This document shows, one piece after another, positions 18,200-51,365 of a stretch of 64,000 bases of DNA; position 1 is the first letter of the stretch; each line of letters starts with the position of its first letter. Location of the stretch: NCBI RefSeq assembly GCF_004010195.1, contig NC_057718.1:50787018-50851017 (forward strand), read 5' to 3'. The translations under genes and the position numbers were made by a program. Under the pieces are notes generated by a model. That model was given only the letters and a program-made list of their open reading frames with translations, did no database searches and had not been told where the DNA came from. This DNA comes from Chiloscyllium plagiosum. Taxonomy: Eukaryota.

Positions 18200-21100
18200 A
18201 GATTTCTATTATAAGAAACATTTTATTAACAAAAAACAGTAAATTCCACTGGCTTAGCATTTCCAATAATGGTTAACTTGGCTTTTGCAACAAAATTTTC
18301 TTTCAATATTTATCACACAAAGCACTCGAAGATGGGGCTTCAGAATGAGTTTGCTTGTTTTATCTTGTGTGAAATGCATCATTCATAAGTAAAATTTCAT
18401 ACAGTTTTAAAACAAGAGTTTGCCAAAAACACAACACATTACAGTACCAAACAGTATCAACCTAAATGAGATTTGGAAACTGCCATGCTAGGGGCTGTAG
18501 GTAGTTTAAGACATAAGAAAAAGTTGCTTCGGTGCAGCCATTAAACCAAATTATTGACTGCATGGATACAACCACCTTGGCAACATGAATAGCTTAAAAC
18601 TGTCTAGTTAGTCAAGTGCTAGTTACTTTACAATATATTCTACTGTTGTCTAGTTGCTTTCTAAAGCTCCTACAGCCACTTTTAATGTCTTTCTGACTGT
18701 ATGAGCATGTTTAATAATGGGGTTAACTAAAGTTAACAAATATTTTTATTCCATCTTTCGCCTGTTGTTTGTTATCAATCACCAGCCCATGGACCTCTTT
18801 CACGTATCTTTGCATCACCATACCAATGCACTTCAGGAGAATAACACCTTGCACCTGTCATGTTCCCATGCTGAATCCAGAAAACCATGAGACCTAAAAA
18901 CTGATCTTAGTCGCAGTGAAATTTTCTCAACAAAATCCAAAACTGTTTCCTAATAGGCAGATAACCACAACTTGAGTGGGAATAAAATAATATTGATCTC
19001 ATTTGCTTTTAAGTTTAGTCTTCTGGGATTTAGGATTTCCTTCTGTTAGAATTAGAAGATAAAATGTTTTGTAGACATTCTTAATTTCTTGATTATAAAT
19101 ATCAACGATAGCTTGTGTGAGAAGGTTGAACATTGTTAATTTGTATTACTTGTTACTGGAGACATAGTTAAATGGATTACAATTGCAGGCATACAATAGT
19201 TCGAGACAATAAAATGGGTCAGTAATCTCATGTTAGTATTCATATTAATATTTAAATGGGTGCAGTCTTCAAAAACAACTTTTCCAGAATGTCTATAAAT
19301 GCTCAATATAATAACATAAATCACATCACAACATAGCACAACAAGGTGCATGTGATGTTAGGGTGATTAAGGACTTATCTGCTCAACCTCTCTTCCTCAG
19401 AAACTGAGAGTTTTATTTTGATGTACAGGATGACAGCACAACTTTGTCTCCAAGGTAAAAACAAAATGATCAAAAATGAGTCTTGTTTAGACAGGATTTA
19501 TCTGAGGTGGATAGCACAAAGTGACAAACATAATGAATTGTTTTCGGGGTAACTGAGGCGGCTGGAGCAGTTGGCAAGGAGGCTACAGCAATCCAAAATG
19601 ACTGCTGACAAAAATGCATGATTTCTGTTATGTTGTGGCCCCTGCTGTTTAAAGCTAATTTTAAATTCCTCCGTCCTATTTGAATGCATGAACATCTATT
19701 TTTCTCCCAGGAGGTCTTCTCGCAATTGAGCTGGTTTCCCTTGAAGTACACCCATAGAACCTAATATATTCCCTTTGTATTTGATTTGAAGTACATTACA
19801 ACTGGGTTTATTGCTGTGAGATAATCTAAAAAATAATATAGAAGCTAAATAATGAGCTCTTAAGATCTGTATAGTTTAATATTCCACAAATTGGACTGTT
19901 CAGTCAAAGCTAAAAATTAAAAACTCTCAATGCTCTAATGTTAAAGTTTCCAACTTTTCAGATGAGTTAAGGGGCTTTTTAAAAAAAGAAACAATGAAAC
20001 TAAACATTAAAAATAGGAACAAATAACCAACTGTATTTTCTGCAATGACTCCATAGATACTTCGGAGGATTTCCATGTAATAAGTACATTGACATTAAGC
20101 AACATCAAAATGGGGCTTACAAATAATTGAAAGATCAAAGATTCCTTTAAGCATTTCTCATTTTCCCCATGGGATATAGCAAACATAAAAAGAGGAAATA
20201 ATTGAAAACAATTTCAAATCATTGACCTTACAAAGATTTCATAGCATTAGCCACCATTTAATTTTAAAACTCACTTTGTTTCCCACACAACAAAACCTCA
20301 TAAAAACGTAAGAGATTACAGTCTGAGTCAATTACAAAAAATGCAGCTAAATTATACGTACATTCATATGTATCCCCTCATACATGTATGGTAGACATTC
20401 AATACAATTAAAATAAAAAAAAAAGAAGTTTGAGACTATTAATGACGGCTGCAAAACACATTTTAAAATTGCAGACGTCATCAACAACTTCAAACCTGTC
20501 TAAACCTAGCTACAGCTATAACATTACATTTACCAAAAAATGTCTGGTTAGCAGAGATATTTGCATTGTCTATACAACAGGCTATAAAACATCACTCATC
20601 ACAGTCCAGAAAGCACATATATGTGTTTGTATAAATGTATGTAATAACATATTAGCGTGCATGAAAATTTTCAAATGATTGTATCTATGCTCTCTTTTAT
20701 CTGTGTATATCCATGCCTTACATTTCCTGTGGAAGAAATTAAGGCTTTCCTTACGTCTTACAACCAGAAAGGGATTATTCCACTTTATACTATTTTAACA
20801 TTAGTCTTATGTTGTAGCCAGCACTTAAACACAGGTCGCCCATGGATGTAAAGATGATAAACCCTTTACTGTCAAGGGTCTGCTAACTATTGTTTGTTTT
20901 AAGGTTCTTGGAGTAATGAGATTTCTGTCATGTTGCACAATTGTTTAGCACTTTGGCTGAAAACTCATGGGTAACAGGTAGATTCTCTGTGCACTGTTGT
21001 AATACTCTTCTTTATGAATGCTTCATGCTGTTGTCTCCACAGTAAAGTTCGGACAACGAGAAGATGGAGCGAATGAAAACACTGTGAACAAGTAGGAGAC

Positions 21101-21288
21101 TTCAACCAGCTTGAAATGTTAATGCTTACTTTACAAACTGTCGTCTTTCCTTCCCGATAATGTGTACTGTCCTTATCCTGTGTGCTTTGCAAAAAAGTAA
21201 ATCTCAGTTTTATCACGTCTTTGATAAAATGAAGTTTTTTTTTGTTTTCCTTTTCTCTTTTACACGCTTCTTTCTTCAGAATATACAA
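18200..21288 (-). other. nrxn1: Probable 3'UTR of nrxn1
   Basis: AT-rich, no recognisable transposons, runs from the stop codon to an AATAAA with a downstream U/GU-rich tract. The 3' end is inferred. Confidence 0.55.
18222..18227 (-). terminator. Candidate polyadenylation signal AATAAA
   Basis: + strand tttatt; downstream on the minus strand is tgtttctt...ttttttttgtttc. Other AATAAA hexamers exist (e.g. 14952-14957). Confidence 0.5.
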
Positions 21289-21593
21289 TCAGACGTAGTA
21301 CTCTTTATCCTTATTCTTCTTGTTTTTGCTGGAATTTTTGGCATTGTTCACCTGCTTCTCTTTCACTACAGCCCCATTGGACTGAGCGGAGTTACTGATG
21401 TAGTTTCTGCTCTCATCCACATGGTAGGAGCCTTCGTCCCTATTCCTGTACTTGTACATTGCATACAGGAGGATGAGAATGCAAAGAGCAGCTGCTGCCA
21501 CAATTCCGACCACCATTCCTGTAGTGCTGCTCGATTCTCGAATCACTTCTGCTGTTCCTGGGAAGCCTCTGCCACCTGGTCCGGTGGGGTTTG
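21289..21593 (-). CDS. nrxn1: Neurexin-1 terminal coding exon (stalk end, transmembrane helix, cytoplasmic tail with PDZ-binding EYYV)
   Basis: Acceptor tctacAG at 21595-21594, phase 1. Translates (A)[103 protein letters not shown]. Neurexin identity is unambiguous; [10 protein letters not shown] and [12 protein letters not shown] favour NRXN1 over NRXN2/3. Confidence 0.95.
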
Positions 21594-22221
21594 CTGTAGA
21601 TACATCATGAAATAGGGAGGAGGTTACTACTGGGTTTTATAGCTTTCTATCATCTGTATAATTTAATAAAGGTGGGCAGAGGGATACAATACGGTATCTG
21701 GAAGGGGTTTCAAGCCACTGTTAAACACGTTTTTTCTGGCCACCAGTTTTAGAAAGGGATAGTGACAACAAAGCTTAACAGAAGCTAAACTAGGTATTGT
21801 GTGAGTGATTTCAAGTGCTTTATTAGTTCTGACTTCCTTTGCTTCTCACCATGGTGTCTGTACTTTGAAGTAACCTTCAAACATTGTTGTGCACAGTGTA
21901 GATAAATATTATCTGCTATTTAAATAAAGTTATGCAAAAATATTATCACTAGGTGGCAGTTTGGAATTAAATTACCCTACTTGTGCCTTCACTAAACACC
22001 ATGAAGGAGCTTTGCTACAAAGATAATGCCATCCCATTAACACAATTAGTGTTGTAATTTCAGGAATGCAACATAATCTTGCTGCAGACTTAAAAGAAAA
22101 CGAGAGTTTGTTGCTTTCAATAGTAAATCAAGAATGGCACATGATGAAACAAGGCAAAAGGTGCATGATCAAGTGGAGAAATGGATTCTAACTGGACTTT
22201 TGTGATCATTAAAATTATCTC
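21594..22221 (-). pseudogene. Degenerate remnant of the long SS5 exon extension homologous to NRXN2/NRXN3
   Basis: Colinear minus-strand peptide blocks EIILMITKVQLES..HAPF..VPFLI / TIESNKLSFSFKSAARLCC / CVNGMALS / FNSKLPPSD / LSTLCTTMFEGYFKVQTPW*EAKEVRTNKALEITHT / KLVARKNVFNSGLKPLPDTVL / PLPT / [21 protein letters not shown] parallel the recalled NRXN3 long insert, with stops and frameshifts. Confidence 0.85.
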
Positions 22222-23399
22222 CTGGGGAAAACAAAATGTAAGCTTTATTAGAAATGGGCACCACTGTGCAACTGCTGGTTTTAAAAGAAACCAAAAAGAA
22301 AACATGTTCAAGTGCAGAAACGTTAATATTGGACAACTTAGCAGCACATAATAAGACATATGAAATGGATGACAACTGTACTTGCTTTTTGTTGAATGCA
22401 GACATTAACATTTTAACATTTATCCTGAAAATATCAAAAAGTATGCTCACCATACAGATCAGTCAACAAATTGCCCCCATGATTTTGCATGAAGGAAAAA
22501 TGAAAGAAAGTTGTAAAAGAATGACCTTAAAACATGATTATATTTGTTTCTTGCATTATTTCAGCTTCATCATAAGATTATGGCATATCTTAAAACTGTG
22601 TTTAACTTTTACATTAGAAAACAAACCTATCAAAACATGACAGAATGTTAAATTTAAATGTTATACCAATGTACACCCCACCTTTATTTTACCAGATCCC
22701 TCTGATTTTCAAGGGAACCAATTTTGAATATTTTAACAAAGTGGTCTATTGAATTTCCTGTAAATTAAAATAAAATACAATAAAGGTCAAGTCACAGCCC
22801 AGGAACGATACATAATAAAGTGAGACATTCAACAAAGGTGGGTTATTTTCATCGTCACATGCATCAGGCTCTGAGATAAACTGTCTGTTAAATGTCAGAG
22901 CTTTTTTCAAGTTGTCGTTGAAATATTTTGAATAACAATGACTTATCTGAAATGAATAAATATTTCTCAAGTCAAATGTGTATGATATCTACACAAAGGA
23001 ATTATTAGTTAGTTCCATTTTGACATGGCTGTGAACCTAAAAAGATTCATGAAAACCATTTTTGGAGATAGCATGCAGACATAAACACTGAACCATGAGA
23101 AGGAATGGATCTTAACATGGTATGTGCAATCTTACCTTTTAAAAACAAGAAAAATAATTATGCAAAGTATCCACATCAAAATTAAACTATTGCACTTTTC
23201 AACAAATCTTTTCCCCAATACCTCAATGGGGCCCCAATAAATTCCTTCTCAGTTTACAGAAGTTCTGTTGCTTTGTCCACAACACTTGCAAGTCACATTG
23301 CCTTTAAGCCTTGCACTTACATTTAAAAAAAGGATAATAAAAGTGTGCACTCATCATTAATGATATTTGGCAGAGAAAGTCAATTTTCACAATTGATGA

Positions 23400-32332: not shown

Positions 32333-33257
32333 GTCATAGAGATGTACAGCATGGAAACAGACCCTTCAGTCCAACTAGTCCATGCCGACCAGATATTCCA
32401 ATCTAATCTATTCTCACTTGCCAGCACCCAGCTTATTTTACTCCAAACCCTTCCTATTCATATATCCATCCAGATGCATTTTAAATGTTGCAAGTGTATT
32501 AGCCTCCATCACTTCCTCTGGCAGCCCATTCCATACACGCACCACCCTCTGCGTGAAAATGTTGCCCCTTAGGTCTCTTTTATATCTTTCCCCTCTCACC
32601 CTAAACCTATGCCCTCTAGTTCTGGACTCCCCCACCCCAGGGAAAACACCTTGTCTATTTATCCTATCCATGCCCCTCATGATTTTATAAACCTCTATAA
32701 GATGACCCCTCAGCCTCTGATGCTCCAGGGAAAATAGCCCCAGCCTATTCAGCTTCTCCCTGTAGTTCAAATCCTCCAAACCTGGCAACATCCTTGTAAA
32801 TCTTTTCTGAACCCTTTCAAGTTTCACAACATCCTTCCCATAGGAAGGAGACTAGAATTGCATGCATTATTCCAAAAGTGGCCTAACCAATGACCTGTAC
32901 AACCGCAACATGACTTCCCAACTCCTGTACTCAATACCCTGACTAATAAAGGAAAGCATACCAAACACCTTCTTCACTATCCTATCTACTTGCAAATCTA
33001 CTTTCAAGGAGCCTTGAACCTGCAGTCCAAGGTCTCTTTGTTCAGTAACACTCTCTAGCACCTTACCATTAATTGTATAAGTCCTGCTAAGATTTGCTTT
33101 CCCAAAATGCACCATCTCACATTTAGCTAAATTAAACTCCAACTGCTAGTCCTCAGCCCATTGGTCTATCTGATCAAGATCCCATTGTAATCTGAGGTAA
33201 TCTTCTTTGCTGTCCAATACAACATCAAATTTGGCATCATCTGAAAACTTATCTACT
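32333..33257 (-). mobile_element. CR1/HER1 LINE ORF2 C-terminus and 3' tail
   Basis: ORFs 32867-33142 (FNLAKCEMVHFG..LYRSLVRPLLE) and 32438-32827 (LERVQKRFTRMLPGL..RLRGHLIEVYKI..WNGLP). Confidence 0.93.
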
Positions 33258-34443
33258 AAGTGAATTGTTAGGAGAGTATCAAGGTAGGGGGAGTATAGTT
33301 AAGAGGAAAATCAGGAGGGCAAAAAGAGTACATGAGATAGCTTTGACAAATACGATTAAGGAGAATCCAAAGAATTTTTATAAATACTTTAAGGACAAAC
33401 AGGTAACTAGGGAGGCAATAGGGCCCCTCAAAGATCAGAAAGGCAGCCTATGTGTGGAGCTGCAGCAGATGAGAGAGATACTAAATGAATATTTTGCATC
33501 AGTGCTTACTGTAGAGAAGGACATAGAAGATATAGAATGTAAGAGGAAGTGGCGGATGTCTTGAAACGCATAAAAGTGGATAAATCCTCAGGAACTCATC
33601 AGGTGTACTCTAGAACTCCGTGGAAAGCGAGGGAAGTGATTGCTGGGCCCCTTGCTGAGATATTTGTATCATCGATAGTCACAGGTGAGGTGCTGGAAGA
33701 CTGGAGGTTGGCTAACGTGGTGCCACTGTTTAAGAAAGGTGGTAAGGACAAGCCAGGGAACTATAGGCCAGTGAGCCTGACCTCAGTGATGGGCAAGTTT
33801 TTTGGAGGGAATCCTGAGGGACAGGATTTACACATAGTTGGAAAGGTAAGGACAATTAGGGATAGTCAACATGGCTTTGTGTATGGGAAATCATGTCTCA
33901 CAAACTTAATTGAGTTTTTTGAAGAAGCAACAAAGAGAATTGATGAGGGCAGAGTGGTAGACATGATCTATATGGACTTCAGTAAGGAGTTCAACAAGGT
34001 TCCCCATGGGAGACTGATTAGCAAGGTTAGATCTCATGGAATACAGGGAGAACTAGCCATTTGGATACAGAACTGGCTCAAAGATAGACGACAGATGGTG
34101 GAGGGTTGTTTTTCAGACTGGAGGCCTGTGACCAATGGAGTGCCACAAGGAGCGGTGCAGGGTCCACTACTTTTTGACATTTATACAAATGATTTGGATG
34201 TTAGCATAAGAGGTATAGTTAGTAAGTTTGCAGATGACACCAAAGTTGGAGGTGTAGTGGACAGCGAAGAAGGTTACCTCAGATTGCAACGAGATCTTGA
34301 TCAGATGGGCCAATGGGCTGAGGAGCGGCAGATGGAGTTTAATTCAGATAAATGTGAGGTGCTACATTTTGGGAAAGCAAACCTTAGCAGGACTTACACA
34401 CTTAATGGTAGGGTCCTAGGGAGTATTGCTGAACAAAGAGACC
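33258..34443 (+). mobile_element. CR1/HER1 reverse transcriptase fragment
   Basis: PGNYRPVSLTSV, QHGF..KSCLTNL, YMDFSKEFNKVPH, GVPQGAVQGPLLF, KFADDTK in ORF 33549-34721. Confidence 0.93.
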
Positions 34444-35212
34444 ACTTATCACCTTGTACCATGGAACTGTACTTAGCTGGACCCGTGACTACCTGGTCAG
34501 GTCCATGCTCCCCAACAACCCACCCTCCTTTCCTGGCATCCTCCCCTTACACTGCAGGAATTGCAAAACCTGTGCCCACTCCTCCTCCCTCACCTCCATC
34601 CAAGGCTGCAAAGGAGCCTTCCACATCCAAAGTTTTAGCTGCATATCCACCAATATCATTTATTGTATCCGTTGCTCCTGATGCGGTATCTTCTAGATTG
34701 GGGAGACTGGGTGCCTCCTAGCAGAGCGCTTTAGGGAACATCTCTGGGACACACGCACCAATCAACCACACCGCCCTGTGGCCCAACATTTCAACTCCCC
34801 CTCCCACTCTGCTGAGGACATGCAGGTCCTGGGTGGTCTCCACTGCCACTCTCTCACACCCAACGCCTGGAGGAAGAACGCCTCATCTTCTGCCTCGGAA
34901 CACTTCAACCCCATGGCATCAATGTGGATTTCACCAGTTTCCTCATTTCCCCTTCCTCCACCTCACCCAAGCTCCAACCTCTTCATCCCACCCCCATTCA
35001 CCTATTGTACTCTATTCTACTTTCTCCCCACCCCCACCCTCCTCTCATTTATCTCTCCACTCTGCCGGCATCCTGCCTCTATTCCTGATGAAGGGCTTTT
35101 GCCTGAAACGTCGATTTTCCTGCTCCTCGGATGCTGCCTGAACTGCTGTGCTTTTCCAGCACCACTCTAATTTAGAGTCTGGTTTCCAGAATCTGCAGTC
35201 CTTGTTTTTATT
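34444..35212 (+). mobile_element. Penelope-like element 3' part (GIY-YIG + pLTR)
   Basis: CRNCKTC..FSCISTNIIYCIRCS..IGETG..AERFREHL..AQHFNSPSHSAEDMQVLG. Confidence 0.9.
35081..35116 (+). ncRNA. Minimal type I hammerhead-like motif, best-preserved copy
   Basis: ATTC-CTGATGA(35085-35091)-A-GGGC-tttt-GCCT-GAAACGTC(35105-35112)-GATT; predicted cleavage after 35112. Confidence 0.65.
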
Positions 35213-47789: not shown

Positions 47790-47877
47790 CTAAACCACCA
47801 GAGCTTGGCTCACATTCATCAATGTCCTCATCATCACTAGGACATTCAGCAGAGGCAACCAATAGATCATCTGTGCT
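47790..47877 (-). CDS. nrxn1: Neurexin-1 penultimate exon (Cys-loop/acidic stalk, SS5 donors)
   Basis: Not in the ORF track. Pyrimidine tract + cAG (47879-47878); 88 nt encoding [29 protein letters not shown]+G; donor GTGAGT at 47789. Phase 1 joins the terminal exon to give PSSGGLANPT as in NRXN1. Alternative donor GTGGTT at 47798 removes GGL. Confidence 0.95.
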
Positions 47878-49435: not shown

Positions 49436-51365
49436 TACAGTCATGGAGTCACAGAGATATACAGCATGGAAACACACCCTGTGGTCCCACTCGTCCATGA
49501 TGACCGGATATCCTAACCTAAACTAGTCCCATTTGTCAGCACTTGGACCATATCTCTCCAAACCCTCCCTATTCATATATCCATCCAGATGCCTTTCAAA
49601 TGTTGCAATTGTACCAGCCTCCATCACTTCCTCTGGCAGCTCATTCCATACCTGCATCACCTCTGTGTGAAAATTTTGCCCCTTAGGTCCCTTTTATATC
49701 TTTCCCCTCTCACCCTAAACCTATGCCCTCTAGATCTGAACTTCCCCACTCCATTTGTCTATTTATCCTATCCGTGCCCCTCATAATTTTGTAAACCTCT
49801 ATAAGATCACCCCTCAGCCTCTGACTCTCCAGGGAAAAGAGCTCCAGTCTTTTCAGCCTCTCCCTGTAGCTCAAATCCTTAAACCCTGGCAATAACCTTG
49901 GAAATCTTTTCTGAACCCTTCCAATAGGAAGGAAACCAGAACTGCACGCAATATTCCAAAAGTGACCTAACCAATGTAACATGATCGCCCAACTCCTATA
50001 TTCCAATACTCTGACCAATAAAGGAAAACATACCAAACACATTCTTTACTATCCTATTTACCTGCAACTCTACTTTCAAGGAATATGAATCTGCACTCCA
50101 AGGTCTCTTTGTTCAGCAACAGACCCTAGGACCTTACCATTAAGTGTATAAGTACTGCTACGATTTGCTTTCCCAAAATGCAGCATCTCACATTTATCTA
50201 AATTAAACTCTATTTGCCACTTCTCAGCCCATTGGCCCATCTGGTCCAGATCCTGTTGTAATCTGAGGTAACAATCTTCGCTGTCCACTACACCTCCAAT
50301 TTTGGTGTCATCTGCAAACTTACTAACTGTACCTCTTATGCTCGCATCCAAATCATTTCTGTAAATGACAAAAAGTAGAGGACCCCGCACCGATCCTTGT
50401 GGCACTCTACTGGTCACAGGCCTCCAGTCTGAAAAACAGCCCTCGACCACCACCCTCTGTCTTCTACCTTTGAGCCAGTTCTGTATCCAAATGGCGAGTT
50501 CTCCTGTACTCCACGAGATCTAACCTTGCTAACCAGTCTCCCATGGGGTACTTTGTCGAACACCTTACTGAAGTCCAAATAGAGCACCTCCATCGCTCTG
50601 CCCTCATCAGTCTTCTTTGTTAGTTTTTCAAAAAACTCAGTTAAGTTCATGAGACATAATTTCCCACACACAAAGCCATATTGACTATCCCTAATCAGTC
50701 CTTGCCTTTCTAAATACATGTAAATCCTGTCCCTTAGGATTCCCTCCAACAATATGCCCACCATTGGCGTCAGGCTCACCGGTCTATAGTTCCCTTGGCT
50801 TTTTCTTACCCGCTTTCTTAAATAATGGCAGCACGTTAGTCAACCTCCAATCTTCCAGCACCTCACCTGTGTCTATCGATGATACAAATATCTCAGCAAG
50901 AGGCCCAGCAATCACTTCTCTAGCTTCCCACAGAGATCTACAGTACACCTGACCAGGTCCTGGGGATTTATCCATCTTTATGCGTTTCAAAACATCCTGC
51001 ACCTCCTCCTCTATAATATGGACATTTTTCAAGATGTCACCATCTCTTTCCCTACATTCTATATCTTCCATGTCCTTCTCCACAGTAAACACTGATGCAA
51101 AACACTCATCTTGTAATAGCCCCATCTCCTGCAGCTCCACACATAGGCTGCCTTGCTGGTCTTTGAGGGGCACTATTCACTCCCTAGTTACCCTTTTATC
51201 CTTAATTTACTTATTAAAAACCCTTTGCATTCTCCTTAACTCGATTTTCCAAAGCTATCTCATGCCCTCTTTTTGCCCTCCTGATTTCCCTCTTAAGTTT
51301 CCTCTTTCTACTGTTATCCTCTTCTGAGGATTCTCTTGCTATGTTCTGTCTATACCTAACATATG
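49436..51365 (-). mobile_element. CR1/HER1 LINE ORF2 (RT + tail), frameshifted
   Basis: ORFs 50784-51173, 50414-50779 (YLDFSKVFDKVPH), 50076-50453 (VPQGSVRGPLLF, KFADDTK), 49710-50042. Confidence 0.93.

Follow-up and report, generated by a model that had tools for sequence, protein, structure and literature searches.

The closest described counterparts of the locus considered here lie within the neurexin family itself. Transmembrane (TM)-less forms of NRXN3 are produced through the cassette exon 24 and are GPI-anchored, and splicing to the Nrxn3 acceptor 25a gives an in-frame mRNA that is translationally repressed, as set out in the accessible portion of one study (PMC9275415). The peptide table of that study assigns the first part of the long Nrxn3 extension to 25a, its FEGGY part to 25b and the sequence after ANPT to 25c (Hauser et al. 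2022, PMC9275415), and excerpts of a further report tie 25b to C1ql2 binding (PMC10942602). A human stop-exon form is called secreted in the available text of a preprint (10.1101/2025.10.02.680092), and a review, in the passages at hand, describes the SS5 stop as unique to Nrxn3 (PMC9812575). For NRXN1, SS5 is described in sections of two papers as a choice of donor that includes or omits GGL and alters both heparan sulfate and protein level (PMC13212319, PMC8024894). Activity has been reported for a soluble neurexin-1 ectodomain (PMC7582164, in part), and shedding is described, likewise in partial texts, as already providing a soluble ectodomain (PMC6683742, PMC5171655). The accessible main text of a human NRXN1 long-read preprint (10.1101/2025.11.11.687875) contains no mention of the words secreted, soluble, transmembrane or acceptor; its supplements may list such isoforms.

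The minus strand of the window, by which we mean the whole 64-kb stretch of DNA that was analysed, carries the last two NRXN1 exons of a cartilaginous fish. Translated, the last exon shares 99–100% identity with neurexin 1a of sharks and rays, which identifies the gene, and a tblastn search with a full-length shark protein as query detected no further neurexin exons in the window. The two exons are separated by an intron of 26.2 kb containing 1642 AGs, and the features that bear on its splicing are as follows.

47877-47790, minus strand: penultimate exon of NRXN1 (88 nt, entered in phase 0 and left in phase 1); its two donors follow 47799 and 47790, and use of the latter adds the three-residue GGL insert of SS5
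22222-22251, minus strand: distal acceptor, comprising a branch-like CTAAT (22251-22247), an intervening AG (22244-22243), a pyrimidine run and the AG at 22223-22222; rank 5 of 1642 by score
21819-21849, minus strand: donor-like GT (21849-21848, seven of nine consensus matches) and AATAAA (21824-21819), both within the relic described below
21289-21595, minus strand: proximal acceptor AG (21595-21594) and last coding exon, with the TM segment and PDZ-binding end; the terminal exon starts at 21593, and the junction occurs in RNA run X3
21576-21577, minus strand: a further in-frame acceptor, 18 nt into the last exon, whose use removes ANPTGP; junction of the main contigs of RNA runs X1 and X2

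From the assignment of peptides to 25a, 25b and 25c, the used acceptor at 21595 would be the counterpart of 25c. As in described NRXN1 SS5 splicing, this gene has both donors (47799 and 47790), and shark annotations include both forms, although that donor choice keeps the TM segment and does not involve the distal acceptor. Elsewhere in the window, decayed reverse-transcriptase-like frames, presumably of LINE type, lie at 32400-34700 in the last intron and at 49700-51300 in the preceding one; their longest open stretch has 392 codons (33543-34721).

The distal acceptor, whose first exon base would be 22221, is more than a chance occurrence. On a rough position score, built on an approximate frequency table and distinct from MaxEntScan, it reaches 7.7, and among the five top-scoring AGs of the intron it is the only one with a YTRAY motif upstream. 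The proximal AG, which sits 628 nt downstream, scores −1.8 (rank 277), and the acceptor of the penultimate exon scores 4.3 (rank 32). The initial annotation had called the distal site cleaner than the canonical one, which on this rough score is correct, and its statements about the letters themselves (branch-like CTAAT, pyrimidine run, AG, the donors at 47790 and 47799, the tail and its TGA) all check out. Within the would-be exon, the GT at 21849 and the AATAAA at 21824 might serve to end a cassette or a short terminal exon; no use of either was seen in the contigs of the three RNA runs. Farther upstream, a weak AG at 22276 (score −0.3) with a T-rich run before it opens a 52-codon phase-1 frame that extends on the minus strand to 22117, crosses the likely ancestral frame of the relic and ends mildly hydrophobic; no use of this frame was seen either.

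What lies between the two acceptors was explored by comparison of neurexin proteins. NRXN2- and NRXN3-type forms exist with an extension of 160–220 residues before the shared ANPT segment, and this long extension is also found in a skate NRXN2-like protein and partly in a lamprey protein. The corresponding features of the shark intron are these.

about 21596-21971, minus strand: 3′ part of the relic, in which the end of 25a and the whole of 25b from an NRXN3-type long SS5 extension survive in decayed form
21972-22221, minus strand: 5′ part of the relic, 25a-like and collinear with the paralog insert; not significant alone
21913-21914, minus strand: AG that aligns with the start of NRXN3 25b; a weak site (score −3.1), use of which would give a 42-residue TM-less tail
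22169-22221, minus strand: predicted 17-codon phase-1 tail followed by TGA; relic sequence in an out-of-frame reading
22134-22205, minus strand: cluster of seven YCAY motifs close to the start of the would-be exon, six of them in 60 nt

The claim that a decayed exon is present is borne out by the 3′ part, which matches the NRXN3-type extension by tblastn (E 9e-8), by frameshift-aware alignment (score 139 against 52 for the best of 62 intron pieces used as controls, with 44% identity and four stops) and by a DNA-level profile (71.6 bits against a control maximum of 24.1, n = 62). In the profile alignment this part carries seven indels, of which five shift the frame, and 23 mismatches at 98 conserved determined sites. 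None of the five NRXN2-type inserts tried stood out from the controls when aligned to the relic (P0213 scored 64 against a control maximum of 62), and a DNA alignment of the relic to teleost NRXN2 was uninformative. For the 250 nt of the 5′ part, the best pair (P0337) was equalled by two of 142 controls and an anchored profile alignment by 37–49 of 196. Two NRXN2-type proteins align from exactly 22221, a match that is not significant alone, and the length of the paralog insert predicts a 25a start at 22210, 11 nt away; by post hoc arithmetic, the chance that one of the five top AGs would fall so close to the predicted start is about 0.5%. Taken as sequence, these comparisons support the view that the segment is part of a decayed exon and that the distal acceptor belongs to it; the identity of the AG as the 25a acceptor would follow from its position. 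A protein in which 25b-like sequence directly follows the penultimate-exon motif (P0232) hints at an old 25b acceptor.

Like Nrxn3 25a, the distal site is the most distal of the nested terminal-exon acceptors, occupies the same place relative to 25b and 25c sequence and has homologous sequence farther downstream. Unlike Nrxn3 25a, which is used, in frame and translation-repressing, the shark site opens out of frame onto a broken extension, and its use was not seen. The relic fails to extend in frame to the TM segment, since a stop follows after 17 codons and the 3′ part holds at least four stops and five frameshifts. The site works like nothing that has been shown, and by descent it would be a 25a acceptor that fails the in-frame test.

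Splicing of the penultimate exon, ending at 47790 or 47799, to 22221 would give ..CEPSS(GGL)-GDNFNDHKSPVRIHFST-stop, with the TGA at 22171-22169 and no TM segment. The length of this tail is no more than chance would provide, for phase-1 tails behind the AGs of the intron have a median of 13 codons and 42% of them reach at least 17. The likely ancestral frame of the relic begins at 22221 in phase 0 and reads EIILMIT there, as against ELILPIIT in a skate protein, whereas the incoming exon is in phase 1; the mismatch of phases makes the tail a reading of the relic out of frame. The best explanation of the 17 residues is accordingly that they are such a reading and have no role. A protein database search with a 40-residue query containing the tail returned no candidate, with the proviso that cluster membership may conceal a truncated form, and Pfam found nothing in the 97-codon frame that ends in the tail.

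The initial annotation likened this arrangement to stop-containing SS5 variants of NRXN3, and the likeness is a loose one. It holds to the extent that TM-less NRXN3 forms exist and that, as with Nrxn3 exon 24 (AS5+), the stop would come ahead of the TM segment and at the corresponding neurexin splice site. However, exon 24 is a separate cassette that supplies a hydrophobic GPI signal and yields an abundant membrane-anchored protein (PMC9275415, in the portion at hand), whereas the shark tail is hydrophilic (GRAVY −1.1), unlike a hydrophobic C-terminal GPI signal, and lies in no cassette; the true counterpart would be 25a. The proposal that the stop would escape nonsense-mediated decay also stands in part: it applies only if the relic runs into the last exon, but with the GT at 21849 as donor the segment would be a poison cassette with its stop 319 nt before the junction.

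Expression of the region 19600-23200 was assessed from the contigs of three runs (X1, X2 and X3, from two related species) and from raw reads of one further run (X21). The 16 contig records come from relatives, organisms A and B, rather than from the species of the window, and such contigs drop rare forms. All three contig sets contain spliced NRXN1 RNA, recognised by loose ends that match the 3′ end of the penultimate exon; these ends lie at 21595 for X3 and 21577 for both X1 and X2, placing the junctions at 21593 and 21575. No junction at 22221 occurs among the loose ends listed for the 16 records, and no record starts or stops at that position. In X1, contig depth is 229 on the last exon, and the relic is covered by two short contigs of depth 5.3 and 3.8, with holes, as compared with 8.65, 2.5 and 2.7 in the intron upstream. 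The contig of depth 8.65 crosses the distal AG unspliced by 25 letters, the bridge criterion being 31, and depth drops behind the AG rather than rising as a stable isoform would make it do. Even if all depth on the relic were counted as spliced product, it would come to about 2% of that on the last exon, contig depth being a poor measure. X2 has a depth of 40 on the last exon and nothing on the relic; X3, at depth 3–6, has the proximal junction alone. The X21 run, single-cell data from the species of the window of which about 2% was read, gave 24 reads, all partial and 22 of them less than 90% alike, and was uninformative. The stable isoform anticipated from junctions 47790>22221 or 47799>22221 finds no support in this material, in which, contigs dropping rare forms, neither a junction nor a depth step is present.

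The deepest intronic contig of X1 (8.65) spans 22197-22988 and a contig of X2 spans 22676-22915. These contigs are probably pre-mRNA or DNA, and their surroundings are a candidate region for an exon-24-like cassette. At the 3′ end of the gene, organisms A and B both match the 3′ UTR at 19600-21290 (minus strand) with about 99% identity, and an X1 contig carries at least 1.1 kb of 3′ UTR below 19600.

A comparison with organism A has little power to reveal conservation, the two species being about 2% apart. By the differences listed, 9 of 385 positions are changed in the relic, as against 18 of 1037 in the upstream intron (p 0.51) and 19 of 1977 in the last exon (p 0.035 for the comparison with the relic). 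None of the listed differences falls on the distal AG, and two lie in the 50 nt before it, at 22236, which is still a pyrimidine, and at 22266. Conservation of the acceptor beyond the flanking intron was not found in this comparison of low power. The tail and the long extension were absent from all 51 proteins of a cartilaginous-fish NRXN1 set, which is biased to TM-bearing forms and covers 62 of 378 cluster members. In a tally of 182 NRXN1-type proteins, 170 were short, 10 had the acceptor 18 nt inside the last exon, one was flagged as long and one as TM-less. The long-flagged protein proved to be a tilapia model with unrelated sequence, and the TM-less-flagged one a garbled model with a normal tail at its end. 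In a teleost NRXN1-type locus with a last intron of 673 nt (L001), the relic gave no blastn match and only short, off-register tblastn matches (E 0.003–0.03), and a metagenome scan returned five teleost-type loci and no shark or tetrapod intron.

We consider it probable that the distal site is a vestigial acceptor of the 25a type in a silent relic. In early vertebrate neurexins the last exon would have been a single long one, within which the acceptors called 25a, 25b and 25c in Nrxn3 were nested. NRXN2 and NRXN3 keep the extension of roughly 200 residues; in NRXN1 it would have ceased to code for protein, and 628 nt of decayed sequence now separate the old 25a-type acceptor from the 25c-type one. 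The former would be strong by origin, having had a true intron before it, and the latter weak by origin, having lain inside coding sequence, so that this ancestral layout may account for the pattern of a strong distal and a weak proximal site. Decayed exons that leave a surviving splice signal in an intron belong to a general class, the pseudoexons and vestigial splice sites that follow paralog divergence; this one would be very old for a recognisable relic, unlike usual members of the class, if the loss predates the split of sharks and bony fishes. In simulations without indels, a strong acceptor at a divergence of 0.20–0.25 kept its AG in 55–65% of runs, a score of at least 5 in 31–54% and a score of at least 7.7 in 13–33%, so under this model of neutral decay survival of the acceptor would be unremarkable and survival at full strength somewhat lucky, a minority outcome. 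Sharks have a low mutation rate, according to the part of the source at hand (PMC10587355), and slow shark evolution may explain why the old AG and its pyrimidine run can still be read. The spliceosome would then skip the old AG, or its product would be too rare or short-lived to see.

That a strong upstream acceptor is passed over suggests silencing, for which the YCAY cluster, located 16–87 nt behind the old AG, is a candidate. YCAY clusters near 3′ splice sites or in exons are described as NOVA silencers (PMC2014790, as far as its accessible text goes). The shark cluster is in the top 0.16% of 60-nt windows and is one of three such clusters in the intron, a ranking obtained post hoc among several motifs; no RBFOX motif occurs between 22700 and 21594. 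As teleost NRXN2-type DNA (L005) carries five YCAY motifs at insert positions 42–82, the cluster may be inherited from proline-rich coding sequence, and a possible NOVA-type silencer is here a lead and not a result. Both the neutral survival of the site and the means of its silencing are matters that we infer.

Retention of the relic acceptor as a dosage switch through regulated unproductive splicing, silenced in most neurons by NOVA-type YCAY elements, is possible, though we think it unlikely. The acceptor would be used in some cells or states and the mRNA degraded or, like that of Nrxn3 25a, left untranslated; degradation could follow from a cassette (22221-21850) with its stop 319 nt before the junction, or from a 3′ UTR about 880 nt longer. 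A strong acceptor with a branch-like motif, a YCAY cluster at a silencer-type position (PMC2014790, in part) and the donor-like GT at 21849 are consistent with such a switch, a product that is degraded could easily escape notice in contigs, and the translational repression described for Nrxn3 25a (PMC9275415, same portion) makes retention at the RNA level not far-fetched. However, neither junction nor depth step nor added conservation was found, the cluster was picked out post hoc and is present in teleost NRXN2-type coding DNA too, and the relic is undetectable in the last intron of the teleost NRXN1-type locus. We give still less weight to the more specific version in which cartilaginous fishes kept the old acceptor and the YCAY silencer as a switch that, when lifted, gives a TM-less, hydrophilic-tailed ectodomain or a silenced mRNA. 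Were it true, there would be a second, independent route to TM-less neurexins, in a paralog thought to have none, and RNA-level control of the Nrxn3 25a type would have outlived the protein once encoded. The suggestion that a decayed exon was repurposed for soluble NRXN1 is not supported, with no junction at 22221 in the contigs, no depth step, no added conservation and a tail out of frame, and its companion, dosage tuning by the distal acceptor, is possible. In its stable form, an mRNA encoding a secreted ectodomain with both stalk-loop cysteines and the hydrophilic 17-residue tail, acting as a decoy ligand, is permitted by the anatomy, could end at the AATAAA at 21824 and would agree with the reported activity of soluble neurexin-1 ectodomain (PMC7582164, in part). 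It is nonetheless very improbable, since the junction or depth step it predicts was not seen, the tail is an out-of-frame reading of unexceptional length with no database match, the SS5 stop is called unique to Nrxn3 (PMC9812575) and shedding supplies the ectodomain (PMC6683742, PMC5171655), all in partial texts. We give the least credence to an acceptor-like site that arose by chance, in which case the relic would start at another point, such as the AG pair near 22276. Four other AGs of the intron score equally high, the 5′ homology is not significant and one local alignment prefers 22278-22252 (equalled by 15 of 116 controls); but the site lies within 11 nt of where the paralog length would put it, a register beginning at 22278 would require some 115 nt more and the two NRXN2-type proteins, not significant alone, align from 22221 exactly.

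As matters stand the locus is an evolutionary footnote, whose clear message is that NRXN1 formerly carried the long SS5 extension seen in NRXN2 and NRXN3, together with the stretch that binds C1ql proteins in Nrxn3 (PMC10942602, in excerpt), and that a shark genome still displays it with all three acceptor positions. The literature searched, which lies mostly outside the subscription journals that hold the classic neurexin gene-structure studies, yielded no prior description of an NRXN1 relic. Were use and conservation of the acceptor established, a gene linked to autism and schizophrenia would gain a further isoform, TM-less or for dosage control, and the same intron in mammals would merit attention.

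Direct support exists for one side result, the in-frame acceptor 18 nt into the last exon. Besides its junctions in X1 and X2, the form that it produces is present in 10 of the 51 proteins of the cartilaginous-fish NRXN1 set, including all six Amblyraja forms listed. The dipeptide SG is a heparan sulfate attachment motif. Joined to 21575, the short donor would read ..CEPSSGGRG.., restoring an SG pair without the GGL insert, and this predicted join might uncouple heparan sulfate addition from the choice of SS5 donor.
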